From Clostridia bacterium (GTDB taxonomy: Bacteria; Bacillota; Clostridia; Christensenellales; CAG-138), in contig JAFYOP010000001.1 in NCBI GenBank assembly GCA_017547885.1, positions 1,500 to 65,499 of the forward strand: a stretch of DNA of 64,000 nt, in the 5' to 3' direction. This document shows, in pieces, positions 1,826 through 63,713 of this stretch. The position numbers and the translations under genes are program-made. A model generated the notes under the pieces. The model did no database searches, was not told where the DNA came from, and saw only the letters and a list, made by a program, of their open reading frames with translations. Numbering within the stretch: position 1 is the first letter of the stretch; the number at the start of each line of letters is the position of its first letter.

Positions 1826-1960
1826 TAAAACGCTAAAGCGTTTCCGGGCGGCAAAATCTGCAAAGTACGAAAACCTGACGGTTTTCATCCGTTTTGCCGT
1901 ACACGCCACCAAAGCCGGAATGAAAATCAAGGGGGTGCGACCCCTTGATAATCCCCGGAG
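1826..1960. repeat. Family B structured intergenic repeat, copy B1
   Basis: Alignable with 21893..22034. It has a closing helix TTCCGGG/CCCCGGA, hairpin GAAAACC-TGAC-GGTTTTC, helix CATCCG..CCGGAATG and hairpin ATCAAGGGG-loop-CCCCTTGAT. Confidence 0.7.
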
Positions 1961-3610: not shown

Positions 3611-3645
3611 AAAGGGCTGTGGGAAACCACGGCCCTTTGATATTT
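3611..3645 (+). terminator. Intrinsic terminator after the FTR-like gene
   Basis: Stem GGGCTGTGG / CCACGGCCC with a GAAA loop, followed by TTTGATATTT. Confidence 0.7.
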
Positions 3646-3889
3646 ATCTAATCCCACCCACCACAGAACTAAAGTAATAGTGAATAGTGAAGGAGTATTT
3701 ATTATCTATACCCACCCGCCACCCTTTAAATGTATCTTCGCCTAATGGCGAAGACGGGGGAGGACGGATAAAGCTCCATTAACCGCGAATAACTCCATGG
3801 GGTGTAACCTATCCTGCCGATAGCACGTTTCGCTTCTCCCGCAGGGAGAAGCTTCCTTAAAGGGTGGAGGGTGGGTATAGATAATAAAT
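3641..3889. repeat. Family A quasi-palindromic element, copy A1 (extended variant)
   Basis: The order is a solo arm TATTTATCTAATCCCACCCACCACA, then a GTAATAGTGAATAGTGAAGGAGTATT module, then the full element 3697..3889. The element's arms are ATTTATTATCTATACCCACCCGCCACCCTTTAA and TTAAAGGGTGGAGGGTGGGTATAGATAATAAAT. Subterminal hairpins are TCTTCGCC-TAAT-GGCGAAGA and GCTTCTCCC-GCA-GGGAGAAGC. Confidence 0.85.
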
Positions 3890-3975
3890 GGTCTATCGCC
3901 AAAAAGGGAAAAACGGATTGCCACGGCAGTATGCGGACTGCCTCGCAATGACAAAAGCCAACTTGCTCATCTTAC

Positions 3976-4007: not shown

Positions 4008-4051
4008 GGCAGCACACCTAAGCATGCTTACACTTGAATCAATTTAAAACT

Positions 4052-4122
4052 TTCGCTTTTCTTTCTCTTTTTGCTTCTTTTTCTTCTTTATTTTCGCGTC
4101 CGAAAAGAAAGAGAAAAAGAAG
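4052..4122 (+). repeat. Family C Py-Py-Pu triplex-type module, copy C1
   Basis: TTCGCTTTTCTTTCTCTTTTTGCTTCTTTTTCTTCTTTATTTTCGCGTCCGAAAAGAAAGAGAAAAAGAAG. Same tracts 1 and 3 as 35724..35794 and the reverse complement of 63642..63713. It starts 11 nt beyond the stop of minus-strand gene 4133..4783. Confidence 0.9.
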
Positions 4123-4132
4123 GTATATCAAA

Positions 4133-4783
4133 TCACTTCCTCCTCACCCGCACCCAAAAGCCGCTGCCGTCCCGGGCACGGAGGAAGCGGGTGTAGCCGG
4201 GAGGGCCGCTGCGGCCCTCTGCGGGAAGGGCGTGAATGAGATAATCCACACCCTTGTGGCGGGACTCCCCCTCAAGATAGCAGCGGTCCGTGCCGGGATA
4301 TTCCACCCGCCGCCAGCGGGAAAAGGGAAAAGCCTGAGGGAAGGGATTCAGTACCGCGTCATCCTGAGGCGGCGGGGGAAGGGGCTGGGGCTGTTCTGCG
4401 GGGAAAAGCTCCGCCGCCTTTTGCAGTATTTCAAGGAGAGCGGCGGAATTGGGCCGCTGGGGCTGCTTGGGCTGAGCTTGCGGCGGCTGCTCAGGGTGCC
4501 GGGGAGCAGGAATAGGCTTTTGAGCCGAAAGGCCCATCAGCAACGCCGTCCGTGCCTTGCCAAGGGCAGCGGAGTGCCCCGCAAGGCAGCCCTGCATGGC
4601 TATCCTGTCTCCATCCGGCACAAAGGCGCCCACCACGTCATTAGGGGCGGATTCCCGCGGGTATACCTTGCCCTGCCTGTCAATAAGGTACAGCTCCTTA
4701 CAGGGAACGGACAGCTGTATTTCCTCCCCCAGCGTAAGAAATGCCCTGCCGCCCGGGCCTGAAAGGGTAATGAGTCTTTTCAT
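4133..4783 (-). CDS. Hypothetical protein with a Pro/Gln-rich central linker
   Basis: Track ORF 4133..4918. Start moved to ATG 4783, preceded by AAAAGGAGA. No family recognised with confidence. Confidence 0.5.
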   Translation of the reverse strand: MKRLITLSGPGGRAFLTLGEEIQLSVPCKELYLIDRQGKVYPRESAPNDVVGAFVPDGDRIAMQGCLAGHSAALGKARTALLMGLSAQKPIPAPRHPEQPPQAQPKQPQRPNSAALLEILQKAAELFPAEQPQPLPPPPQDDAVLNPFPQAFPFSRWRRVEYPGTDRCYLEGESRHKGVDYLIHALPAEGRSGPPGYTRFLRARDGSGFWVRVRRK

Positions 4784-4877
4784 GCCCTGTCTCCTTTTAT
4801 GTTTGTGTTGATATAAAACTATGATATAATTTTGCTGTATAGACTTTGACCATTGCGCCAAAGAAAGGAAGAACCCC

Positions 4878-5588
4878 ATGAAAAACAAAAAGACCCTTTC
4901 GGCCCTGCTTACCGCCATAAGCTGCGTGGCATGGCTGGTGATAATAATCGCCCTGATGTTTACTTTCCTTAGGGGGGAGCTGAAAAACGAGAGCCGCTAT
5001 CTGGCCTTTTATGAGGAATACCGCATAGAGGAGCGTACAGGCCTTACCCCCAAGGGCGCCACCGATGCCCTTATGGCGCTGGTGGATTATATGGAAGGGG
5101 ACAGAGACAGCATACAGCTTACTGTTGAAGAATACGGCGTACCTGTTGAGATGTACTCTGAGGATGAGATACACCACATGGTGGATGTGTATTATCTCTA
5201 TCAGGGCTTTGCAAAGTTTCAGCCCGCGGGCATCGCATGCGCCGTGATAATACTGCTCATCGGCTGGTACGCAAAGAAAAACGCACTGCCCAATATACCC
5301 TTGCGGAGCTTTTTCCGGGGGCTGGGGCTGTTTGTGCTTATAGGGGGCGGCCTTGCCCTGTGGGCGATGCTGGATTTCACCTCCTTCTGGACGGCATTCC
5401 ACCTTGCCTTCTTCAGCAACGACCTGTGGCTGATGGACCCCAGAGTATCCCGCATGATACGCATATGCCCGGAGCACCTCTTCAGCGGCATTGCGGGCCG
5501 CATGGCCGCAAAGACCGCCGCAATGCTGGGCGTGATATGCATTGCCCTCATTACTTACAGCAGACATACCCGCAAAAAGGAAGCGTGA
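4878..5588 (+). CDS. TIGR01906/DUF1461 family integral membrane protein (Lit-like)
   Basis: 236-aa ORF after GAAAGGAAG. N-terminal TM segment, a middle domain with the EDEIHHMVDV motif, and C-terminal TM segments, as in TIGR01906 proteins. Confidence 0.7.
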   Translation: MKNKKTLSALLTAISCVAWLVIIIALMFTFLRGELKNESRYLAFYEEYRIEERTGLTPKGATDALMALVDYMEGDRDSIQLTVEEYGVPVEMYSEDEIHHMVDVYYLYQGFAKFQPAGIACAVIILLIGWYAKKNALPNIPLRSFFRGLGLFVLIGGGLALWAMLDFTSFWTAFHLAFFSNDLWLMDPRVSRMIRICPEHLFSGIAGRMAAKTAAMLGVICIALITYSRHTRKKEA

Positions 5589-5593
5589 GAACC

Positions 5594-6664
5594 ATGAGCG
5601 AAATGTATTCAGCATCCGCGGCAAAAGGACTTGCCGCATATCAGCATAATAAGGACGCACTGCTCCTTGCCATAGAAAGCTCCTGTGACGAAACGGCGGC
5701 CTCTGTGCTGCGGGGGGACAGGGAAGTGCTCAGCATGAGCGTATATACCCAGATACCCCTCCATCGTAAGTTCGGCGGGGTGGTGCCGGAGCTTGCCTCA
5801 CGCAGCCACGTGGAAAAGATAGGGGAAGTGGTAAACTATGCCCTTGAGTCCGCAAAGGTCACCATAGACGACATATCCGCCATAGCCGTCACCTGCGGCC
5901 CCGGCCTTGTGGGGGCGCTGCTGGTGGGGGTAAGCTATGCAAAGGGCCTTGCCTTTGCCAAAGGGCTGCCCCTCATCGGCGTAAACCACCTTGCGGGGCA
6001 TATCGCTGCCAACTACCTTACATATCCCGACCTTAAGCCTCCCTTTATGTGCCTTGTGGCCTCCGGCGGGCACAGCCATATTATCAAGGTGGAGGATTAT
6101 CATAAATTCACTCTCCTTGGCCGCACCCGTGACGACGCGGCAGGTGAGGCCTTTGACAAGGTTGCAAGAGCACTGGGTCTGCCATACCCCGGCGGGCCGG
6201 AGCTTGAGAAGCTGGCCCGTGAGGGAGACCCAAACAAATACCCCTTCCACTCCGCGCTGAATCAAAGCATAGAGGAAAGCGACTTCAGCTTTTCCGGCAT
6301 AAAGACAGCGGTGGTAAACCTGCTGCACAATGCAGAGCAAAAGGGCGAAAGCCTGGATCCTGCGGACATTGCCGCGTCCTTCCAGCGGGCGGTGTGCGAT
6401 GCCCTTACAATGAAATCCGTACATGCCGCAAAGGCCCACGGCATGGACACCCTTGCCCTTGCGGGGGGAGTATCCGCCAACAAGGCCCTCCGGGGCGCAC
6501 TTGAGGCAGAGTGCAGGCGTCAGGGGGTGCGGTTCTGCTGTCCGGATTTCCGCTTCTGCACCGACAACGCCGCAATGATAGCCTGCGCCGGCCACTACGG
6601 CCTTATGGCGGGGCAGCTCAGCGGCCTTGAGCTGAATGCCGTGCCGAATCTGGCGCTGTGTTAG
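5594..6664 (+). CDS. tsaD: tRNA N6-adenosine threonylcarbamoyltransferase
   Basis: Track ORF 5237..6664, start set at ATG 5594. Motifs ESSCDETAASV, GVNHLAGH, SGGHSHI and FSFSGIKTAV are classic TsaD/Kae1. Confidence 0.95.
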   Translation: MSEMYSASAAKGLAAYQHNKDALLLAIESSCDETAASVLRGDREVLSMSVYTQIPLHRKFGGVVPELASRSHVEKIGEVVNYALESAKVTIDDISAIAVTCGPGLVGALLVGVSYAKGLAFAKGLPLIGVNHLAGHIAANYLTYPDLKPPFMCLVASGGHSHIIKVEDYHKFTLLGRTRDDAAGEAFDKVARALGLPYPGGPELEKLAREGDPNKYPFHSALNQSIEESDFSFSGIKTAVVNLLHNAEQKGESLDPADIAASFQRAVCDALTMKSVHAAKAHGMDTLALAGGVSANKALRGALEAECRRQGVRFCCPDFRFCTDNAAMIACAGHYGLMAGQLSGLELNAVPNLALC

Positions 6665-6672
6665 GGGGGAGT

Positions 6673-6730
6673 GTTCTTTTCTTTAAAAGAAAAGAACCAA
6701 AAGAAGCGTACTTTCCTTAAAGGAAAGTAC
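6673..6730 (-). repeat. Family D twin Py/Pu hairpin module, copy D1 (Py-Py-Pu sense on the minus strand)
   Basis: GTTCTTTTCTTTAAAAGAAAAGAAC-CAAAAGAAGC-GTACTTTCCTTAAAGGAAAGTAC, 8 nt after the tsaD stop. Same module as the reverse complement of 62243..62314. Confidence 0.9.
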
Positions 6731-6781
6731 CAAAGGATAAATAACATAATTAAAAAAGTTTGCACAGAAGTGCTGTCAATC

Positions 6782-6809
6782 AAAAAAGCCACTCACGAGC
6801 GGCTTTTTT
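6782..6809. terminator. Bidirectional intrinsic terminator between tsaD and the AI-2E transporter gene
   Basis: AAAAAAGCCACTC-ACGA-GCGGCTTTTTT, flanked by an A-run and a T-run. Confidence 0.75.
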
Positions 6810-6817
6810 GCATATAT

Positions 6818-6860
6818 AATACTTATTCACTATTCATTCTTCACTATTACTTATCTATAT
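6818..6860. repeat. Fragment of the family A flank module plus the start of an arm
   Basis: AATACTTATTCACTATTCATTCTTCACTATTAC-TTATCTATA. This is the reverse complement of the GTAATAGTGAA..GTATT module seen beside A1 and A5, joined to TTATCTATA. It overlaps the stop codon of 6855..8000. Confidence 0.6.
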
Positions 6861-8000
6861 CTCCTGTCCTGCGGCCCGCTTTTCCTCCAGCCGCTTATTT
6901 ACCCATTCCCGCGTCATGGTGTGGATGACCGCCATAATGGGCACGCACAGCAGCGCTCCAAGGAAGCCGAACAAGCCGCCGCCCAAAAGCAGCGCTATCA
7001 ATACCCACAGGGGAGAGATGCCCACGGCGTTGCCCACAACGTGGGGGTAAATAAGGTTGCCCTCGATGGGCTGAATGGTGCATATCAGCAGTATGAACCA
7101 CAGTGCGCTGGGGGGATCCACCACAAACAGTATCACCGCGCCTATGCCTGCGGATACCCATGCGCCTACGATGGGTATCATCTGGCCCAGGCCCACCAAT
7201 ACGCTTATCAGCAGAGCAAAGGGGAACTTGAATATGCTCATGCCGATGAAGCACATGCCTCCCAGTATAAAGCACTCGGTAAGCATGCCGTATACATAAT
7301 TGTGCAGTGAGGTGTTGGTTTCGTCGCCTACGTGTATTATGTAATCTGCGGTGCGCTCATTGAACACGGCCTTGCAGAACTTGCGGGATTGACGGATAAG
7401 TGTCTCCTTGCCGGCAAGGCAGTATATGCTGATGATGAAAGCGAAGGCAAGGTCAACCAATACTCCGGCAAGCCCCATGGTGAACTTTACCGCAGCAGAG
7501 CTTACTGTGGAGATGTATTGGTATATCTCTGTAAGGATATTGTTGCCCATCTCCATCAGCTTGGCTTCCACTTCTTGGTTGAAGTTGAGGCTTTCCCAAA
7601 CGTTGGTGGCCCATTCGGTAAGGCTGGTGGCGTACTGGGTGAAGTCTGCTGCAAGGGTCTTTATGCTTTCCACCAGCTGAGGACCCACCACCAGCACAAG
7701 CGTTATGATTATTGCAAACACAAACAGCATTGCAAGCACAAGGCAGGTGCCCCGCTTTGCGCCGCAGTCCTTCCAGCGGCGGAATACCTTTGTCTCCAGA
7801 AAGTGCATGGGCATGTTTGCGATAAAGGCTATGGCAATGCCTATGAAAACAGGAGTAACAATGCTGACAAAGCCGCCGAGGGCAGAGCGCACCGCTGTCA
7901 GGTTTTCAAGTATTTCGTAAAGTATTATGCCGAAGGCCACAATGAACAGGGAACGTCGGGTGGACTTCCACAGGCTCTCCATGTTTGGTCTATCCTTCAC
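6855..8000 (-). CDS. AI-2E family transporter (PerM-like permease)
   Basis: 381-aa polytopic ORF. The C-terminal region IQPIEGNLIYPHVVGNAVGISPLWVLIALLLGG is typical of the AI-2E/UPF0118 family. Confidence 0.85.
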   Translation of the reverse strand: MKDRPNMESLWKSTRRSLFIVAFGIILYEILENLTAVRSALGGFVSIVTPVFIGIAIAFIANMPMHFLETKVFRRWKDCGAKRGTCLVLAMLFVFAIIITLVLVVGPQLVESIKTLAADFTQYATSLTEWATNVWESLNFNQEVEAKLMEMGNNILTEIYQYISTVSSAAVKFTMGLAGVLVDLAFAFIISIYCLAGKETLIRQSRKFCKAVFNERTADYIIHVGDETNTSLHNYVYGMLTECFILGGMCFIGMSIFKFPFALLISVLVGLGQMIPIVGAWVSAGIGAVILFVVDPPSALWFILLICTIQPIEGNLIYPHVVGNAVGISPLWVLIALLLGGGLFGFLGALLCVPIMAVIHTMTREWVNKRLEEKRAAGQEI

Positions 8001-8649
8001 TTGCTTTCTCCTTTGCCCGCTGATCCTGCCGGTCGAATTTCTCCGCCAGCAGCTTTGCGGAGATGTATGCTGTAATGGCGTCTATCGCTCTGGGGTTCTT
8101 GCCGCCGCCCATCACGGCAAAGTCGGCCTCTTTTATGTATTTGCTTATGTATTCCTCATACATGGGCTTTACCGTGGCAAGGTACTGCTCGGTAATGTTT
8201 TCTATGGAGCGGCCCCGCTTCATCATGTCGCGGCGGACCCGCCTCAGAAGGCATACGTCCACATCCACATGCATGTATACCTTAAGACTCATAATGTCTG
8301 TGAGCCGCTTATCCCGAAACATATGTATGCCTTCGAGTATCAGCACATCCGTGGGATAAATAAGCTCGGGACTGTCTGCCCTTCTGTGGTTGGCGTAGTC
8401 ATAGCCCTTTGTTGTGATGGGCTTGCCCTCCATCAATAGCTTTATGTCCTCATAAAGCTCGTCAAAGTCAAACACATCGGGTTCGTCATAGTTTATATGT
8501 ACCCGCTCCTCAAAGGGAAGGTGGGCATGGTCGCGATAGTAGCAGTCCAGGCCTATTATGCGGGAGGAACAGCTCAAAGACTGGGATATGAGCCTTGCCA
8601 GTGTGCTTTTTCCGCTGCCGCTTCCGCCGCATACGCCTATAACTATCAT
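7990..8649 (-). CDS. udk: Uridine kinase
   Basis: 219-aa ORF. P-loop GVCGGSGSGKST and conserved YDEPDVFDFDEL, LILEGIH and RRVRRDMMKRGRS. Confidence 0.9.
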   Translation of the reverse strand: MIVIGVCGGSGSGKSTLARLISQSLSCSSRIIGLDCYYRDHAHLPFEERVHINYDEPDVFDFDELYEDIKLLMEGKPITTKGYDYANHRRADSPELIYPTDVLILEGIHMFRDKRLTDIMSLKVYMHVDVDVCLLRRVRRDMMKRGRSIENITEQYLATVKPMYEEYISKYIKEADFAVMGGGKNPRAIDAITAYISAKLLAEKFDRQDQRAKEKASEG

Positions 8650-8860
8650 ATGATATCCCCCAAGCTTTTTTTATATTATAACCGTACCCGTGGGAAATGA
8701 ATAGCGGTTTTTACCGAATTTGCTATATTTTCACAGCTCTTTTACGATGCAGAACAGCCATTGTATTCCTGTTTACCGATTGTTTTGTTTTCATGTATAA
8801 TATCTGTGGTATAATGATTTAGCAAAAATCGGCGGCATGCCGCAGACAATAGGAGAAAAC

Positions 8861-10534: not shown

Positions 10535-10879
10535 GGGCGTTGCCCTTTCGCGAAAAACCATTTGGGTTTTCCGCGAGTATCCGCTGGGTTGGGGGCGGCC
10601 AAATGCTGCGCAAGTGGCCGAATACAATCCCTTTGGGGGATGCCGATTCCCTCTCGCGGCTGCGGCCGCTCCCGGGCGGGAATCGGGCAGCGGTATCCAT
10701 CCCTTGCGGGATGGTTCCGTTTTCGCCGCACATGTCGCCGAAAACGGATTGAAAGCTTTGGGCATGCTGCCGAATGCGGATTGAAAGCCTCGAAGGTCTA
10801 ATATCCTTCCGATAGCACGCCCTGTTTTTCCGCAAGGAAAAACATACCTTAAAAGGGTGGCGGGCGGGAATAGATAAAT
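10535..10879. repeat. Composite repeat A2: family B-like hairpin series fused to a family A right end
   Basis: The B-like part has TTCCCTCTCGCGG..CTCCCGGGCGGGAA, CCATCCC-TTGC-GGGATGG and CCGTTTTCGCCG-CACATGT-CGCCGAAAACGG. It ends with CCGATAGCACG, TGTTTTTCC-GCAA-GGAAAAACA and TTAAAAGGGTGGCGGGCGGGAATAGATAA. No left arm is present. Confidence 0.75.
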
Positions 10880-21892: not shown

Positions 21893-22034
21893 TGCAGGAT
21901 TTCCCTCTCGCCTTGCGGCTCCCGGGCGGGAAAGCCTGTAAAGAAAGAAAACCTTATGGTTTTCATCCGTTCTGACGCACATGTCGTCAGAGCCGGAATG
22001 AAAATCAAGGGGTGCGCCCCTTGATGATCCCGGA
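21893..22034. repeat. Family B structured intergenic repeat, copy B2
   Basis: Has TTTCCCTCTCGCC..CTCCCGGGCGGGAAA, then GAAAACC-TTAT-GGTTTTC, CATCCGTTCTGACG-CACATGT-CGTCAGAGCCGGAATG and ATCAAGGGG-TGCG-CCCCTTGAT, and closes with TCCCGGA. Confidence 0.75.
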
Positions 22035-22590: not shown

Positions 22591-22771
22591 TATTTATCTA
22601 TACCCACCCACCACCCTTTTAATGTGCTTTTTCCCTTACGGGAAAAAGGGCAGGGTTGTTCGCAAGCCCGTTCTGATATGCAATGATTTAGATGCGTGTC
22701 ATTGACAGCACCCTCGGCTTTTCCGCAGGAAAAGCTACATTAAAAGGGTGGCGGGCGGGATTAGATAATTA
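22591..22771. repeat. Family A quasi-palindromic element, copy A3
   Basis: Arms are TATTTATCTATACCCACCCACCACCCTTTTAATG and CATTAAAAGGGTGGCGGGCGGGATTAGATAATTA. Subterminal hairpins are CTTTTTCCC-TTAC-GGGAAAAAG and GCTTTTCC-GCA-GGAAAAGC. Confidence 0.9.
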
Positions 22772-24568: not shown

Positions 24569-24595
24569 GATATGGTATGCTGTGTTTTTGTTTTA

Positions 24596-24632
24596 CGTTA
24601 TTCTTTGGTTCTTTTCTTTTAAAGAAAAGAAC
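24596..24632 (+). repeat. Family D module, single-hairpin variant D2
   Basis: ACGTTATTCTTTG-GTTCTTTTCTTTTAAAGAAAAGAAC, 6 nt beyond the stop of minus-strand gene 24639..25973. It equals D3 with the hairpin-b segment deleted. Confidence 0.85.
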
Positions 24633-24638
24633 GTATAA

Positions 24639-31716: not shown

Positions 31717-31820
31717 GGGAATACCTTACCCACACAGGCAACACCGGCCTTTGGACAGAGCATCCCTTTTTCCCGCAGGGAAAAAGTACATTGAAGGGCG
31801 GTGGGAGGGAATAGATAATA
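31717..31820. repeat. Family A element, truncated copy A4 (right half plus a degenerate left arm)
   Basis: GGACAGAGCATCC, then CTTTTTCCC-GCA-GGGAAAAAG, then TACATTGAAGGGCGGTGGGAGGGAATAGATAATAAG. The left side has only a TACCTTACCCACACAGG remnant. Confidence 0.7.
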
Positions 31821-34664: not shown

Positions 34665-34916
34665 AAATTTATCTATACTCTGCCCGTAAATGAAGCTGCG
34701 GGTAATAATGAATGGTGAGAGAGTATTGATTATCTATTCCCACCCACCACCCTTTTAAGGTATCTTCGCCTGCCGGCGAAGACGGGACAGGTATGATAAA
34801 CCTCCGGCCTTTGCTAATAACCCAAAGGATAATGTACCGCATTATCGATGGAATGCTCGGCTTTTCCGTAGGAAAAGCTACATTAAAAGGGTGGCGGGTG
34901 GGATTAGATAATAATT
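34665..34916. repeat. Family A quasi-palindromic element, copy A5 (extended variant)
   Basis: The order is a solo arm start AATTTATCTATAC, then a GGTAATAATGAATGGTGAGAGAGTATT module, then the element. Its arms are GATTATCTATTCCCACCCACCACCCTTTTAAGG and CATTAAAAGGGTGGCGGGTGGGATTAGATAATAAT. Hairpins are TCTTCGCC-TGCC-GGCGAAGA and GCTTTTCC-GTA-GGAAAAGC. Confidence 0.85.
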
Positions 34917-35679: not shown

Positions 35680-35723
35680 AGATAGCACGATCAGGCTTGC
35701 TTATTATATTTATTTGTTTAACG

Positions 35724-35794
35724 TTCGCTTTTCTTTCTCTTTTTGCTTCTTTTTCTGCTTTCTTTTCGCGTCCGAAAAGAAAGAGAAAAAGAAG
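35724..35794 (+). repeat. Family C Py-Py-Pu triplex-type module, copy C2
   Basis: TTCGCTTTTCTTTCTCTTTTTGCTTCTTTTTCTGCTTTCTTTTCGCGTCCGAAAAGAAAGAGAAAAAGAAG, 11 nt beyond the stop of minus-strand gene 35806..36750. Confidence 0.9.
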
Positions 35795-35805
35795 AATATC
35801 CTCCA

Positions 35806-36750
35806 TCAATAAAACGTTGCAACTTCCTTTTCCGGCTTTTGTGCAGGCTCAACATCTATAACGTGGAGCACAGGGCCGCGGCCGCCGTAGATGCGGTTAA
35901 AGCGTACCTCTATGGAGGCGGTGACTATAACCCACTGGCGCTGGGTCAGGGTGTCTGCCTTGTCCCACTTGCACACAAGGCCGCTGTATTCGATATCGTC
36001 CACACAGCAGGTCATAACGTGACGTCCGGCAATGAAGGTATCTTCGGGCAGGCGGGCGTTGCGGGCAACTATGCCCTTAAAGCGAACGGTTTTGCCTGCG
36101 TACTTTTTCAGCTCCTCGGACATATCCCGATACCATATGGCGTAGTCGTTGTCGCCGATTTCGATAACCGGAGCATCAACGTCAAAGGGGAGGGGGTCCT
36201 CAATATCGTCGTATTCCACATGGCCGTCGGTGTATTCGTAGGCGATGTTGGCACGGCGGGATACACCGCGGATTATCTTGTGTATCTCCTCTTTGTTGAG
36301 GGTGTCGTCCGCACGGTTCAGCACAACCAGCTCCGCCGTCATCAGCTTGTCCACCATAAGGGAGCGCATGTTGGTGTTGTAGGGAATGAAGGTTTTGGCG
36401 TCCACAAACATGAACTCCTGATACACTGTCCATTCCTTGGGGAAAACACGGGCAAGGTCGCTGAGCAGCCACATGCCGTTGTACTCTATCAGCACGCGAT
36501 CCGCCTGATATTTCTTGACCAGCTTGGTAAGGTCTTCGGAGGTGACCTCTTCGATATCCTCTATGGTTTCGATGTAAACGTATTTGCTGGGGAACTTTGA
36601 AGGATCCAGCTCCTCAATGCCCTCCTCGCACATCAGCACAAGGGTGCGCTCCCCGTCATTAAAGCGCTTATCGCACAGGGTCTCCTGCATAAAGCGGGTC
36701 TTGCCGCCCTCCAGAAACCCCGTGAACATATATACAGGAATCTGTTTCAT
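35806..36750 (-). CDS. G3E-family GTPase-like N-terminal domain fused to a DUF1980/TIGR03943-like C-terminal domain
   Basis: 314-aa ORF. N-terminus VYMFTGFLEGGKT (P-loop-like). The C-terminal segment GRHVMTCCVDDIEYSGLVC resembles YcgQ/DUF1980. Confidence 0.65.
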   Translation of the reverse strand: MKQIPVYMFTGFLEGGKTRFMQETLCDKRFNDGERTLVLMCEEGIEELDPSKFPSKYVYIETIEDIEEVTSEDLTKLVKKYQADRVLIEYNGMWLLSDLARVFPKEWTVYQEFMFVDAKTFIPYNTNMRSLMVDKLMTAELVVLNRADDTLNKEEIHKIIRGVSRRANIAYEYTDGHVEYDDIEDPLPFDVDAPVIEIGDNDYAIWYRDMSEELKKYAGKTVRFKGIVARNARLPEDTFIAGRHVMTCCVDDIEYSGLVCKWDKADTLTQRQWVIVTASIEVRFNRIYGGRGPVLHVIDVEPAQKPEKEVATFY

Positions 36751-36753
36751 GTA

Positions 36754-37902
36754 CTATACTCCAAACAGCTCCATAAGGGCGGATTCATTCAGCTTTGCGC
36801 CGATTACGCACAGCCTGCCGGTAACGCCTGCGCTGCCTTCGCGAACGTTTATCTCGCCGGGTACAAAGTCAAAGTGTATCCAGGCATTTTCGCCCTTCAG
36901 TATGCCCTTTGCCCTGAGTACCGCGCCGTACTTTTCCTCGTCCTCAAGGGCGGCAAGGGCAGCGGCGATACCTTCCGCAGAGAAGGCCTTGGCAGTTTCA
37001 ACGCCCCAGCTGGTGAATACTTCGTCAGCGTGATGATGGTGATGATGTCCGCACTCGCACTCGTGGTCATGCTCGTGATGATGGCCGCATTCGCACTCAT
37101 GGTCATGCTCGTGATGATGGCCGCATTCGCACTCGTGGTCATGCTCGTGATGATGGCCGCATTCGCACTCATGGTCGTGTTCGTGATGGCCGCACTCGCA
37201 CTCGTGGTCATGCTCGTGATGATGTCCGCACTCGCACTCGTGCTCGTGATGGTGGTGGTGATGATGCTCGCTTTCTGCCTTCAGGTGTGCAAGCTCCTCA
37301 TCAAGGGTGTCGCGGCGCTCCATGGCGGTGAGTATCTGTGCGCCGGTCAGCTCATCCCAGGGGGTAGTGATGAGGGTGGCATCGGCGTTGTGCTGACGGA
37401 TAAGCTCAACGGTGGCGGTGAGCTTGTCCTCGGATATGCCTGCGGTGCGGGAGAGGACTATGGAATTGGCGTGCTCTATCTGGTCGTTGAAGAATTCACC
37501 AAAGTTCTTCATGTACATCCTGCACTTGTTGGCGTCAACGATGGCGGTAAAGCTGTTGAGCTGCAGCTCCTCTGCTCCCACGTCCTGTACGGCGCGGATA
37601 ACGTCGCTGAGCTTGCCTACGCCGGAGGGCTCTATCAGTATACGGTCGGGGGAGTACTGCTCCAGCACCTTCTTGAGGGCCTCGCCAAAATCGCCCACCA
37701 GGCTGCAGCAGATGCAGCCGGAGTTCATTTCGGTAACCTCAATTCCGGCTTCCTCAAGGAAACCGCCGTCAATGCCTATTTCACCGAATTCGTTTTCTAT
37801 AAGTACCAGCTTTTCCCCGCCAAATGCCTCGGGGATGAGCTTCTTGATGAGAGTAGTCTTGCCTGCGCCCAGGAAGCCGGAAAAAATATCTACCTTTGTC
37901 AT
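36754..37902 (-). CDS. CobW/COG0523 family GTP-dependent metallochaperone with a long His/Cys repeat insert
   Basis: Track ORF 36754..38055, start set at ATG 37902 (MTKVDIFSGFLGAGKTT); ATG 37914 is an alternative. Has the CICCS motif (CxCC), the ILIEPSGVG switch and a CobW C-terminal domain. The insert is (HDHECECGHHHE)n. Confidence 0.85.
   Translation of the reverse strand: MTKVDIFSGFLGAGKTTLIKKLIPEAFGGEKLVLIENEFGEIGIDGGFLEEAGIEVTEMNSGCICCSLVGDFGEALKKVLEQYSPDRILIEPSGVGKLSDVIRAVQDVGAEELQLNSFTAIVDANKCRMYMKNFGEFFNDQIEHANSIVLSRTAGISEDKLTATVELIRQHNADATLITTPWDELTGAQILTAMERRDTLDEELAHLKAESEHHHHHHHEHECECGHHHEHDHECECGHHEHDHECECGHHHEHDHECECGHHHEHDHECECGHHHEHDHECECGHHHHHHADEVFTSWGVETAKAFSAEGIAAALAALEDEEKYGAVLRAKGILKGENAWIHFDFVPGEINVREGSAGVTGRLCVIGAKLNESALMELFGV
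37030..37268 (-). repeat. Coding tandem repeat, 36-bp unit x about 5.5, inside the COG0523 gene
   Basis: Units GCCGCATTCGCACTC(A/G)TGGTCATGCTCGTGATGATG begin at 37048, 37084, 37120, 37156 (33 bp) and 37189. They encode HHHEHDHECECG repeats flanked by His runs. Confidence 0.9.
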
Positions 37903-45473: not shown

Positions 45474-45564
45474 GGAGAGATGGCTGAGTTGGTCGAAGGC
45501 GCACGACTGGAAATCGTGTAGTGCAGGAATGTACTCAAGGGTTCGAATCCCTTTCTCTCCGCCA
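45474..45564 (+). tRNA. tRNA-Ser (anticodon GGA), class II with a long variable arm, CCA encoded
   Basis: GGAGAGA acceptor pairs with TCTCTCC. The anticodon loop is CTGGAAA. The T-arm is AAGGGTTCGAATCCCTT, and the 3' end is GCCA. A possible promoter TTGCTT-17-TATTAT lies at 45387..45415. Confidence 0.9.
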
Positions 45565-60083: not shown

Positions 60084-60203
60084 CAAACAAAAGGGCAACC
60101 CGATTCACATACTCAAATGAGAATCAGCTTGCCCAGGCGGTCGGCTTATTGCGTACGGTTCCCTTGTGGTAAGCCACTTCCGCCAGTAGCCGTACGAGTA
60201 GTA
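60084..60203 (-). promoter_or_regulatory. ZTP (pfl motif) riboswitch with a terminator expression platform, upstream of purE
   Basis: The minus strand reads CGUACGG-CUACUGGCGGAAGUGGCUUACCACAAGGGAA-CCGUACG-CAAUAAG-CCGACCGCCUGGGCA. This contains the conserved ACUGGCGGA, GUGG/CCAC and CCGACCGCCUGGGCA pseudoknot blocks. The GGGCA overlaps the 5' arm of terminator GGGCAAGCUGAUUC..GAAUCGGGUUGCCC-UUUUGUUUG. Confidence 0.9.
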
Positions 60204-61967: not shown

Positions 61968-62153
61968 TAATTATCTATCCCCACCCGTCACCCTTTTAAT
62001 GTATATTCGCCTTACGGAGAAGAAAAAGGAGTATAAATTATATGTAAACCTGAAAAGCATGCACTGACATTATCCGGTGTCAGCGTAAGCTTATCCTTTT
62101 TTCCCGTAAGGGAAAAAGTACATTGAAGGGTGGAGGGAGGGAATAGATAATTA
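61968..62153. repeat. Family A quasi-palindromic element, copy A6
   Basis: Arms are TAATTATCTATCCCCACCCGTCACCCTTTTAATG and CATTGAAGGGTGGAGGGAGGGAATAGATAATTA. The right subterminal hairpin is CTTTTTTCCC-GTAA-GGGAAAAAG. Confidence 0.85.
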
Positions 62154-62208: not shown

Positions 62209-62242
62209 GGATAGCATATGTATGGTTTTTAATAGGTTATTT

Positions 62243-62314
62243 TACGCTATTCTTTGGTACTTTCTTTTAAAGAAAGTACGCTTCTTTTGGTTCTTTTCTT
62301 TTAAAGAAAAGAAC
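62243..62314 (+). repeat. Family D twin Py/Pu hairpin module, copy D3 (Py-Py-Pu sense on the plus strand)
   Basis: TACGCTATTCTTTG-GTACTTTCTTTTAAAGAAAGTAC-GCTTCTTTTG-GTTCTTTTCTTTTAAAGAAAAGAAC, ending 8 nt from the serS stop codon. Confidence 0.9.
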
Positions 62315-62322
62315 ATACAAAA

Positions 62323-63591: not shown

Positions 63592-63641
63592 TATTGTTTT
63601 CCTCCTGATAGAGTGTGAAGTTCGATTTTTTGTTTTATTCT

Positions 63642-63713
63642 CTTCTTTTTCTCTTTCTTTTCGGACGCGAAAAGAAATGAGAAAAAGAAGCAAAAAGAGA
63701 AAGAAAAGCGAAA
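63642..63713 (-). repeat. Family C Py-Py-Pu triplex-type module, copy C3 (sense on the minus strand)
   Basis: The reverse complement reads TTCGCTTTTCTTTCTCTTTTTGCTTCTTTTTCTCATTTCTTTTCGCGTCCGAAAAGAAAGAGAAAAAGAAG. It lies between the stop of 63745.. and the serS start. Confidence 0.9.

Follow-up and report, generated by a model that had tools for sequence, protein, structure and literature searches.

Downstream of pgi, between the stop codon of this gene and the start of a 150-aa ORF, the analysed stretch of 64 kb (in the following, the window) carries A3, a full copy of an intergenic repeat that we call family A. The six copies proposed in the first-pass annotation are all real (Table 1): four are full doublets, which span 175 to 183 bp from arm to arm, and two are right halves. 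The whole quasi-palindromes measure approximately 175 to 190 bp. All window copies are intergenic and adjoin housekeeping genes; copies are located just past gene ends and terminator-like hairpins. The motif GGGNGGNGGGNGGG matches exactly nine times in the window, whereas 100 shuffles averaged 0.11 matches and never exceeded 2. Family A is confirmed as a real family of palindrome-like intergenic repeats of about 180 bp, and its earlier description as dispersed, non-coding and equipped with inverted arms has been borne out.

Table 1. Coordinates of family A copies, fragments and sub-features in the window.
Feature	Position	Strand	Remarks
Truncated additional arm TTATCTAATCCCACCCACCAC	3644..3664	-	direct repeat of A1 left arm
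Spacer between truncated arm and A1	3665..3696		carries tract AATAGTGAATAGTGAAGGAG, about 3672-3691
A1, full doublet	3697..3889		left hairpin 3735-3754, right hairpin 3832-3852, G-run 3862-3875
Probable element stump	6800..6857		CACTATT-type tract, then TTATCTATA; 3' end of a gene
A2, right half only	10800..10879	+	CCGATAGCAC, hairpin, linker, G-run, TAGATAA
A3, focal full doublet	22591..22771		flanks: pgi stop (22831, -), 150-aa ORF start (22545, -)
A3 left arm	22594..22626	- (G-rich read strand)	plus strand: TTATCTATA, CCCACCCACCACCC, TTTTAATGTG
A3 left sub-terminal hairpin	22627..22648		CTTTTTCCC-TTAC-GGGAAAAAG; G-strand loop GTAA
A3 variable core	22649..22716		88% identity to JAZUMK orthologue only if flipped
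A3 right sub-terminal hairpin	22717..22735	+	GCTTTTCC-GCA-GGAAAAGC
A3 right-arm conserved 33-mer	22736..22768	+	TACATTAAAA, GGGTGGCGGGCGGG, ATTAGATAA
A4, right half, possibly with decayed left part	31717..31820	+	between two convergent genes
A5, full doublet	34729..34912		TTATCTATA remnant at about 34668-34685
A6, full doublet, degenerate left arm GGGTGACGGGTGGG	61968..62153		orthologous site in L099 also occupied

The arms of the doublets (33 to 57 nt) are 70 to 97% complementary and form terminal inverted repeats that bound a short non-coding element; the 33-nt arms of A1 mark the upper end with 97%. Inverted arms of about 33 bp had been described before. Such arms are present, but the inverted repeat is longer, as the sub-terminal hairpins belong to it too and, in some copies, so does an outer extension with the tract CACTATTCACTATT. 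The flanks of the window copies carry on the palindrome (ATTA...TAAT), and no separate direct repeat was seen there. The six G-rich 14-mers quoted in the first pass are exact as written. The attached statement that the G-runs never vary holds for the right arms, but not for the left arm of A6, where one G is exchanged for A. When arms were anchored by TAGATAA only in 150 kb of this lineage, 28 arms had all 11 G, and nine degenerate arms had 6 to 10. Concerning the proposed solo arm fragments, 3641-3665 is a convincing truncated arm, while 34665-34680 and 6851-6860 are weak and keep only TTATCTATA. The stump at 6800..6857 coincides with a break of synteny to JAZUMK.

From a structural point of view, the functional unit is the single arm with its own hairpin and not the arm pair. 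Read on the G-rich strand, an arm comprises a hairpin of 6 to 10 bp, TACMTTAAA(A), GGGYGGNGGGYGGG and WWTAGATAA, i.e., a building block of about 60 nt in which a small hairpin is joined to a G-rich 33-mer that hardly varies. In the 185-bp elements of the window, two of these modules are placed in inverted orientation, with a variable core between them. Within 45 nt upstream, 89 of 125 arms have a perfect hairpin with a stem of 5 bp or more, compared with 18.75 in shuffles; it ends 9 to 10 nt before the G-run in 54 of the 89, and 57 different stems were counted. The stem sequence varies while pairing is kept. In a gap-free alignment, which is a subset of pre-selected copies, all 96 cells pair, all eight pairs show double changes, and the score is 1.197 versus 0.251 for shuffled data (MAFFT, applied to 53 units, aligned the hairpins out of register). 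The excess over shuffles, the fixed distance to the G-run and the double changes in the stem suggest that the hairpin is selected as a structure. Its loop, closed by C-G, is mostly GNA or GNNA: on the G strand, the triloops are GNA in 32 cases and TNC in one, and 14 of 19 tetraloops are of the type G..A. This bias argues for a strand-specific constraint.

At the foot of the hairpin, the stem is followed by TAC on the G strand; on the C strand this corresponds to GTA with G, T or A next to it, which agrees with GTAG only in part. Within the G-run the single-base spacers change, and spacers 4 and 11 are almost always pyrimidines. Beyond TAGATAA, the point at which conservation stops depends on the lineage: Dehalococcoidia have AATCGGGGTGGGG there, and this lineage has CACTATT tracts. 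One sub-family has a 56-nt insert within a hairpin loop. A resemblance to the DnaA box, pairing with the 16S anti-SD, a purine-motif triplex and an alternative hairpin were all considered on the basis of the sequence and dropped, being inconsistent between lineages.

Among the matches listed, the module is found in multiple copies in at least five phyla, as assigned by the titles of the MAG records. The carriers among these matches comprise at least about 24 Dehalococcoidia, 5 Cloacimonadota and about 12 Firmicutes MAGs, and further ones are labelled as Deltaproteobacteria and Nitrospirae. Sub-families carry lineage-specific stems, and the core is identical in several phyla. Arms occur as singlets, as inverted doublets of about 150 to 250 bp and in tandem arrays; in other phyla they stand alone or face a diverged partner, which agrees well with the earlier proposal that the G-runs and not the arm complementarity are conserved. 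The single-arm unit and the span across phyla had both been missed in the first pass. Two doublets are located on a phage contig (L123) with portal and terminase genes, and a BLAST search of the element against plasmids and phages gave no match. Rfam 15, applied with gathering and with permissive thresholds to 35 related loci as well as to the window and the element region, produced no match on the elements; away from them, the window matches one tRNA and one ZTP riboswitch. A literature search by exact sequence and by topic returned only aptamer or eukaryotic G4 papers and no match to the element. The patchy presence of the module is more in keeping with a mobile element than with a site common to all hosts.

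The site downstream of pgi allows a comparison between relatives. The element is present in three related species and missing in three others. Orthologues of A3 are found in L214 and L218, and A3 is identical in three other metagenome contigs. In the orthologous copies, whose interior diverged by 12 to 25%, the G and TAGATAA positions show 0 of 36 and 1 of 36 changes, while 4 of 10 and 6 of 10 free positions changed; at the divergence of the interior, the probability of such conservation is P = 0.012 and P = 0.0004. The claim that only the spacers vary in the G-run proved correct in these copies, and the constraint on G-runs and TAGATAA persists past speciation. Host function or gene conversion between copies could account for this equally. 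Neither a clean empty site nor a clean target-site duplication was obtained; L219 retains a stump, TTATCCAAACCC.

Implementing these observations, family A is probably mobile or once-mobile DNA. We see about an even chance that it is a non-autonomous repeat of the REPIN/MITE kind, with arms that serve as single-strand recognition modules for a trans-acting enzyme. RAYT-like Y1 transposases work on hairpins that are flanked by a tag (PMC3733652, PMC6006769). The REP/REPIN-RAYT systems of Proteobacteria (PMC3116915, PMC3733652, PMC3479197) resemble family A in several respects. Both have a short hairpin unit, and the conserved tag at the foot of the REP unit has a partial counterpart in family A, GTA(G/T/A) directly 5' of the stem on the C strand. 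Both occur as singlets, clusters and inverted doublets that fold into long hairpins, and both are dense, mainly intergenic, located beside housekeeping genes and persistent at orthologous sites. Unlike REPs, family A has a near-invariant tail of 33 nt with a G-run, and one core is shared by several phyla, whereas REP families are lineage-specific.

Against this reading, no enzyme has been linked to family A and no autonomous element was seen. A further likeness to REP-RAYT is that tblastn with E. coli RayT uncovered one RAYT-like Y1 transposase gene in a sister genome (L031 6897-7397); its score for NF047646, 71 bits, does not reach the cutoff of 80. In contrast to a REP-RAYT pair, this gene is flanked by other repeat families and not by family A arms, and its homologues lack the motif: 349 kb (80 loci) of other bacteria that carry them contain zero family A copies. 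A weaker RayT match in L104 is spurious. The first-pass statement that no transposase is present holds for the surroundings of the copies, according to Pfam on the flanking genes and tblastn with RayT, and neither tnpA nor tnpB nor TIRYT genes were found next to copies. Likewise, no autonomous IS with family A ends lies beside the approximately 130 arms (128 loci plus the window). Four loci were rejected as candidates: the only wide arm pair (L070) merely flanks uvrB, L035 has an rsmG-like methyltransferase and a HEPN-like ORF and L050 sugar-epimerase-like and transporter-like ORFs (both named by eye), and L123 has the phage genes mentioned above.

Other known repeats share only part of the picture. 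TIRYT/TIRtron repeats of Y1 transposases have G-run inverted repeats and occur as dispersed singles, dimers and groups, as does family A, and they are found in species without classical REPs (PMC3733652, PMC6006769); their motif is GGGGWSAS, compared with GGGYGGNGGGYGGG in family A, and no TIRYT gene is near any copy. Correia (CREE), ERIC/IRU, RUP and BOX elements (PMC3184786, PMC2229807) are also quasi-palindromic, intergenic, 100 to 200 bp long and bounded by inverted arms, with an unknown or trans-acting transposase, promoter-like ends and likely co-transcription with neighbours; unlike family A, they are confined to a genus or family and have neither the G-run nor the hairpin module. The ends of IS200/IS605 and PATEs resemble family A in their sub-terminal hairpins about 10 nt from the functional boundary and in their strand-specific reading; moreover, IS200/IS605 and family A alike show no obvious target-site duplication. 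However, inverted repeats are lacking at IS200/IS605 ends, where the conserved flank measures only 4 to 5 nt, while the ends of family A are inverted and tnpA/tnpB are absent beside the copies. REP/RAYT and IS200/IS605 ends are lineage-specific, and to our knowledge none of them matches the 33-nt tail, which does not vary across phyla, in length and conservation; this unusual pattern counts against the REPIN/MITE-like reading.

Unlikely, yet worth serious consideration, is a structural element retained by the host, i.e., a G-quadruplex or i-motif, or the target of a conserved nucleoid, topoisomerase or RNA-binding protein. Its copies would help to structure the genome, form barriers at transcript ends or serve as recombination sites, roles that have been proposed for REP/BIME. 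It would fit the nearly constant 11 G between varying spacers with pyrimidines at 4 and 11, the purifying selection in orthologous copies, the common core in several phyla and the position of window copies after gene ends and terminator-like hairpins. The G-run of Neisseria pilE is a bacterial example of a G-quadruplex. In family A the 11 G are arranged in runs of 3-2-3-3, with no more than 2 G in the second tract of any copy, whereas the canonical motif (G3+ N1-7) comprises four tracts of at least three G. A canonical three-tetrad quadruplex is therefore excluded, and a two-tier or vacancy-type fold is all that remains. When G-quadruplex terms are included, ViennaRNA folds a solo arm into a predicted two-tier quadruplex (-9.9 kcal/mol for the 14-mer), but for doublets it pairs the arms together and predicts no quadruplex. 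An interlocked G-quadruplex was the in vitro design goal of a 16-mer containing GGGTGGTGGGTGGG (PMC3575790), and dispersed G4-forming repeats occur in Xanthomonas and Nostoc (GGGNATC repeats; PMC4692102). The latter, like family A, are intergenic G-tracts with very short loops; in contrast to them, family A has its 3-2-3-3 run tied to a hairpin and TAGATAA, and this run usually faces a complementary C-run. A quadruplex would leave TAGATAA, the linker and the hairpin at fixed distance unexplained, and the patchy distribution, with the 349 kb devoid of copies, speaks against a host element. So does the orientation of the arms, which are almost all intergenic. The four gene-orientation classes are similar (25, 24, 19 and 19); for 132 arms, 43 downstream genes point the same way as the arm and 44 the opposite way; and a bias relative to GC skew or replication strand (36/91, p = 0.06) is not significant. 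In these respects family A behaves like REP and MITE repeats.

An ordinary DDE-type MITE, with duplex terminal inverted repeats bound by a classical transposase encoded elsewhere in the genome, appears improbable to us. Inverted arms of 33 to 45 bp, the dispersed non-coding elements of about 180 bp, their presence or absence among related species and ends of the form ATTA-TCTAT...ATAGA-TAAT, compatible with a TA or TTAA-like target, would suit such a MITE. However, there are no direct repeats distinct from the palindromic ends, conservation past TAGATAA stops at lineage-dependent points, solo and tandem arms are common and no transposase adjoins the roughly 130 arms. Strand-asymmetric loops together with compensatory stems indicate a single-stranded form, which also counts against it. 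The inner part as a transposon within a palindromic C-run/G-run target was rejected, since no empty sites were found.

Compared with the JAZUMK orthologue, the interior of A3 matches by 88.4% when flipped and by 56.7% in the same orientation; the element is flipped in place in one species. Together with promoter-like hexamers at the ends, this flip between two species would be expected of an inverton, in which a site-specific recombinase turns the inter-arm segment and alters expression of neighbouring genes. We regard this as very improbable: near-identical ends would remain outside any flip, the core is short (40 to 70 bp) and variable with no promoter found inside, inspection of neighbouring ORFs brought no recombinase to notice, the orientation is identical in four contigs of the same species, and half elements are common. 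Passive inversion by recombination between the inverted arms could explain the flip too.

The fold predicted for A3 consists of the paired arms and two local hairpins, with -44.6 kcal/mol (z = -7.0) as DNA and -88.2 and -84.9 kcal/mol on the two strands as RNA. That the element acts on adjacent genes, be it as a small RNA gene, as a cis-regulatory RNA or as an outward promoter module, is scarcely credible: the strong folds (z about -8.7 as RNA), a TTAAAA-18-GATAAT match and a locus (L089) with the motif 19 nt before an RBS and start codon would favour it, but there is no Rfam match even at permissive thresholds, no terminator-like site in the region around the focal copy, no covariation in the basal-stem spacers, a random orientation towards flanking genes, and neighbours that are mutually unrelated (all-against-all clustering of 772 ORFs revealed no recurring neighbour protein). 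The outward promoter suggested in the first pass did not hold up, with only 9 of 12 consensus positions and the random orientation of downstream genes, and a promoter or terminator role was rejected on the orientation statistics. The hint at a minus-strand transcript, taken from arm mismatches that are A/C on the plus strand and would be G-U on the other, found no support: it is arithmetically true for A3 and A5 (-88.2 versus -84.9 kcal/mol), but the direction is reversed in L214; the asymmetry arises because spacers 4 and 11 are pyrimidines in both arms.

Returning to the repeat with a trans-acting enzyme, each module would be the recognition and processing site of a protein that binds the folded hairpin and the adjoining single-stranded 33-mer. 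A candidate is an HUH/Y1-type transposase or another single-strand DNA enzyme, present as one gene per genome or lost. Copies may be made or reshuffled while the G strand is single-stranded, with doublets as the presumed stable, replicating form, and they may spread among co-habiting anaerobes, e.g., via phages. The G-runs would be kept because the protein, or a G-rich fold needed by it, requires them. More tentatively, and with clearly less confidence, the combination of GNA hairpin, linker of 9 to 10 nt, 3-2-3-3 G-run and TAGATAA may represent the ssDNA site of an unrecognised, horizontally mobile enzyme, in a partnership like REPIN-RAYT that, in contrast to every known one, crosses phyla. 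A transposase of a new kind would be one option for this enzyme, and a domesticated HUH or other ssDNA enzyme another; the fold that it recognises might include a vacancy-type G-quadruplex.

In the usual view, a bacterial REP or MITE family belongs to one lineage and co-evolves with a single transposase. In family A the hairpin drifts by compensatory change, yet Chloroflexota, Cloacimonadota, Firmicutes and other phyla have the adjoining 33-mer in common. This combination points either to a very mobile pair of element and enzyme among anaerobes or to a strict structural requirement, possibly a G-rich fold. In practical terms, family A repeats mark rearrangement breakpoints and variable intergenic regions, produce spurious ORFs and could serve as a strain-typing marker in uncultured Clostridia of gut and digester.

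Family A is a real family of repeats. Its motif GGGNGGNGGGNGGG has nine matches in the 64-kb window, against a mean of 0.11 and a maximum of 2 in dinucleotide shuffles, and a repeat finder run on the window recovered the same families as direct (D2-D4) and inverted (I5-I23) repeats. This run, together with a reading of all six sites, bears out the six copies named in the first-pass annotation, whose six quoted 14-mers are letter-exact. Copy A1 is preceded by a truncated arm, a direct repeat 58 nt ahead of it. The G-runs had been said never to vary, which is nearly but not absolutely so: with anchoring on TAGATAA only, over 150 kb of the window lineage, 28 arms have 11/11 G and nine are degenerate, and the left arm at 61971-61993 reads GGGTGACGGGTGGG, with one G-to-A change. 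The predicted fold of the focal copy, A3, comprises the paired arms and two local hairpins, with a predicted folding energy of -44.6 kcal/mol (z = -7.0) as DNA, and of -88.2 (minus strand) and -84.9 (plus strand) as RNA.

The copies sit between ordinary genes of the window (among them M20 peptidase, NlpC/P60 hydrolase, DUF6198, PGI, LRR protein, PMT_2 glycosyltransferase, TauE-like exporter, xanthine/uracil permease, SerRS), usually with a terminator-like hairpin just ahead, as judged by eye. The PGI is 84% identical to that of an 'Aristaeellaceae bacterium' MAG, and the MAG JAZUMK01 ('Clostridia bacterium SGB_3278') shares large DNA blocks of 82-87% identity with the window. Synteny with JAZUMK (locus L025) breaks at 6707-6856, where the alignment switches from reverse (4137-6707) to forward (6856-8746). 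That this breakpoint coincides exactly with a repeat cluster including a family A stump suggests a repeat-mediated rearrangement. Rfam gave no matches in the window beyond a ZTP (pfl) riboswitch (53.4 bits), upstream of a minus-strand operon, and a tRNA gene. Within a long ORF, seven tandem 36-nt (once 33-nt) repeats encode a His/Cys/Glu-rich tract on the minus strand; the adjoining CobW/DUF1980 GTPase gene suggests a metal-chaperone locus.

Coordinates of family A copies and of features met alongside (L-numbers: loci from other genomes or contigs)
Feature	Position	Remark
Family A, full quasi-palindromes (4)	window 3697-3889, 22591-22771, 34729-34912, 61968-62153	arm-to-arm spans 175-183 bp
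Family A, right halves (2)	window 10800-10879, 31717-31820	sites read directly
Dehalococcoidia doublet	L104 4160-4350	about 186 bp; left arm TTTTTCTTCCCACACCAGCCCGCCC...GGGGGGCGAAGCCCCCC
Phage doublets (2)	L123 1208-1230, 3339-3361	either side of portal gene
56-nt loop insert	L218 3275-3330; L050 about 5430-5490; L027 about 920-980; L123 about 1130-1190
23-mer in larger hairpin	L047 4298-4320, 5201-5223; L076 6772-6794; L030 3892-3914	Peptococcaceae MAG
Near-identical ~110-nt stretch	L015 1100-1200; L042 2000-2100	MAGs labelled Falkowbacteria and Nitrospirae
RAYT-like gene	L031 6897-7397	166 aa
D5	window 4048-4122, 35720-35794, 63616-63690; L215 and L217 just after pgi; L031 about 7480-7550
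D6/D8	window 6669-6740, 24588-24638, 62237-62320; L059 3130-3300, 3780-3940
D7/D12	window 1844-1934, 21922-22012, 10727-10786; L031 6640-6760
Outer tandem tracts	window 3672-3691, 6800-6845; L099 about 7640-7690; L059 2775-2805, 2860-2935
Small palindromic repeat	window 3914-3952; L025 about 5380-5420; L071 about 1890-1930
Tandem 36-nt repeats	window 37007-37296
CobW/DUF1980 GTPase gene	window 35806-36750
ZTP (pfl) riboswitch	window 60124-60200 (-)
tRNA gene	window 45474-45561 (+)

The unit of family A is the single arm. Comparison of the flanks between lineages gives a shared module on the G strand that consists of a hairpin, TACMTTAAA(A), GGGYGGNGGGYGGG and WWTAGATAA. In 89 out of 125 arms, the 45 nt upstream contain a perfect hairpin (5 bp or more), compared to 18.75 in shuffles and 35 in the downstream control, and in 54 of these 89 the stem ends 9-10 nt from the G-run. 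The hairpin arms carry 57 different stems. Stems differ between lineages, with GCTTTTCC/GGAAAAGC or TCTTCGCC/GGCGAAGA in the window lineage, GAAAGGGGGC/GCCCCCTTTC in Dehalococcoidia and ATGGGGC/GCCCCAT in Cloacimonadota. When 12 copies from four lineages are aligned without gaps, 96/96 cells pair, 8/8 pairs show double changes and the covariation score is 1.197 versus 0.251 for shuffles (0/500 as high); these copies were pre-chosen for the hairpin, and the unbiased figure is the 89/125 against shuffles. The triloops on the G strand read GNA 32 times and TNC once, and 14 of 19 tetraloops are of the type G..A, with C-G as the closing pair. Such strand-asymmetric loops suggest that each arm is read on the G-rich strand, in single-stranded form. 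What is new in family A is a co-varying hairpin with a GNA loop, set at a constant distance from a 33-mer common to several phyla and conserved in orthologous copies. In a Peptococcaceae MAG, the loop that contains the 23-mer belongs to another, larger hairpin (TTTCAATCAAGGCTG...CAGCCTTGATTGAAA), so the core can be embedded in other scaffolds.

Three more metagenome contigs of the same species carry the focal element, downstream of pgi, in identical form. At the corresponding site of related species it is present in L214 (PGI 91% identical) and in L218 of JAZUMK (88%), absent from L215 and L216 (both 90%) and L217 (89%), where other repeat families are found, and reduced to a TTATCCAAACCCTGCC stump in L219 (87%). 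Two orthologue comparisons show 0 and 1 change in the 36 G and TAGATAA positions, and 4 and 6 in the 10 free positions; given interior divergences of 11.6% and 25%, this yields P = 0.012 and 0.0004 for the conserved positions. Judged from these alignments, the conservation after speciation is due to purifying selection or gene conversion. Some family A hairpin loops contain a 56-nt insert, CTAGGCCCGCAGGCC...GCAAGTCTAGGCGCGTA, flanked by GCA and GTA and absent from the orthologous window copy, which may be a nested mini-insertion targeting the loop or a sub-family variant.

On sequence grounds, the module extends beyond the window lineage, with taxa as labelled in MAG record titles. A scan of one representative genome per species with GGGNGGNGGGNGGGNNTAGATAA gave at least 110 loci, where we estimate about 17 chance matches in 596 Gb, assuming equal base frequencies. 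Among the matches listed, three are poly-G artefacts and the remaining ones are multi-copy in many MAGs: at least about 24 of Dehalococcoidia, at least about 12 of Firmicutes (JAZUMK, Faecalibacterium, Sporobacter, Christensenellaceae, Peptococcaceae, Oscillospiraceae), and at least five of Cloacimonadota, three of Deltaproteobacteria and two of Nitrospirae. Single matches in other taxa may be due to chance. The stem types are particular to each lineage, and this speaks against contamination. Pairs of the exact motif at 173-187 bp are found in the window, JAZUMK and Faecalibacterium, and the Dehalococcoidia copies are solo in appearance only, as their left arm has diverged. Smith-Waterman alignment found an inverted partner upstream of 22/125 arms versus 3/125 in the downstream control, with spans clustering at 150-200 bp and matches in Dehalococcoidia, a Deltaproteobacterium, a Nitrospira-group MAG and a phage contig, among others. 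Cloacimonadota also have the motif in tandem arrays, repeated every 38 nt.

Among viral contigs, the motif is present in only 18. One of them, L123 (IMGVR_UViG_3300029305_011003), comes from the same sample as the related-species contig L215, and its two doublets adjoin the large terminase gene; such a phage might act as a vehicle of horizontal spread. The near-identity of L015 and L042 around the motif could reflect a recent transfer or a mis-binned contig.

A structural or G4 element retained by its host is an unlikely account of family A. As for quadruplex formation as such, the 3-2-3-3 pattern of G-runs rules out a canonical quadruplex of three tetrads. Under RNA parameters, a solo arm is predicted to form a two-tier quadruplex next to the hairpin, whereas in the full doublet the arms pair in its place. 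An in vitro design for an interlocked quadruplex used a 16-mer that includes GGGTGGTGGGTGGG (PMC3575790). The pyrimidine spacers 4 and 11 are compatible with single-base loops, and could equally be what a protein tolerates. Still less probable is a plain DDE-type MITE; no transposase was seen beside any window copy, as anticipated from the first reading. In the window, tblastn with E. coli RayT found nothing. No recurrent neighbouring protein was found beside the arms in the loci listed, and wide arm pairs enclose ordinary genes. A search for 'empty' C-run|G-run sites found none, and plasmid and phage BLAST with the element gave no match.

An RNA or promoter element is very improbable. The outward promoter that had been proposed is not supported, as TTAAAA-18-GATAAT matches the consensus at only 9/12 positions and orientation to flanking genes is even over four classes (25, 24, 19, 19), which makes a general promoter or terminator role unlikely. 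The arms show no significant GC-skew bias (36/91), and no Rfam family matches the elements, permissive thresholds included. The arm mismatches of A3 and A5 are indeed A/C on the plus strand and G-U on the minus strand, but they do not point to a consistent transcript strand: the asymmetry arises because both arms carry T or C at the same spacer, the L214 orthologue has the arm types exchanged and the mismatch direction reversed, and A6 has G-T on the other strand. An inverton is highly doubtful as well. The interior of L218 does match that of the window better when flipped (88.4%) than in the same orientation (56.7%); since the arms move together with the interior, the element was inverted or re-inserted in place.

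Read on the C strand, family A shows a tail, GTA(G/T/A) and a hairpin, and thereby resembles the GTAG-tagged REPs that are substrates of RAYT Y1 transposases (PMC3733652, PMC3479197); its G-runs recall the G-run inverted repeats of TIRYT genes (PMC3733652, PMC6006769). With E. coli RayT, tblastn identified a RAYT-like gene in JAZUMK, the closest relative of the window (JAZUMK010000050.1; E = 8e-20 and 71 bits against NF047646, cutoff 80; Y1_Tnp 22.9 bits), a Y1 transposase whose HUH motif reads HIH. It was rejected as the partner of family A: its flanks carry other repeat families, and the family A motif is lacking from the 80 metagenome loci in which homologues of the gene occur, 349 kb altogether, so the enzyme is not tied to the family.

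Several other repeats were met alongside. D5, a long pyrimidine/purine hairpin (CTTTTCTTTCTCTTTTTGCTTC...GAAAAGAAAGAGAAAAAGAAG), occupies the pgi-downstream site instead of family A in related species. D6/D8 is built of Y/R hairpins in tandem, GGTTCTTTTCTTTTAAAGAAAAGAACC being one example. In Cloacimonadota, hairpins closely resembling these come after the G-run motif, so several families of repeats may be common to phyla. The CTGACG...CGTCAG hairpin of D7/D12 has one copy directly upstream of the L031 RAYT-like gene and is absent from the 80 loci where that gene has homologues. In two phyla, the arms are bordered on their outer side by short tandem tracts of 7-8-nt units: (AATAGTG)n/(CACTATT)n in the window lineage, (TAGTGAG)n as well as (GGTGACAA)n in Cloacimonadota. 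A small palindromic repeat reads CGGATTGCCACGGCAGT...ACTGCCTCGCAATGAC, and a GTCATTGCGAG...type sequence is also present in a Dehalococcoidia locus.

Family A is a real family of REPIN/MITE-like structured intergenic repeats, apparently undescribed so far. As the most likely mechanism we infer, with about even confidence, that each arm would be recognised in single-stranded form by a trans-acting enzyme, which would copy or rearrange the elements, and that these may spread horizontally among anaerobes, their carriage by phage being documented.
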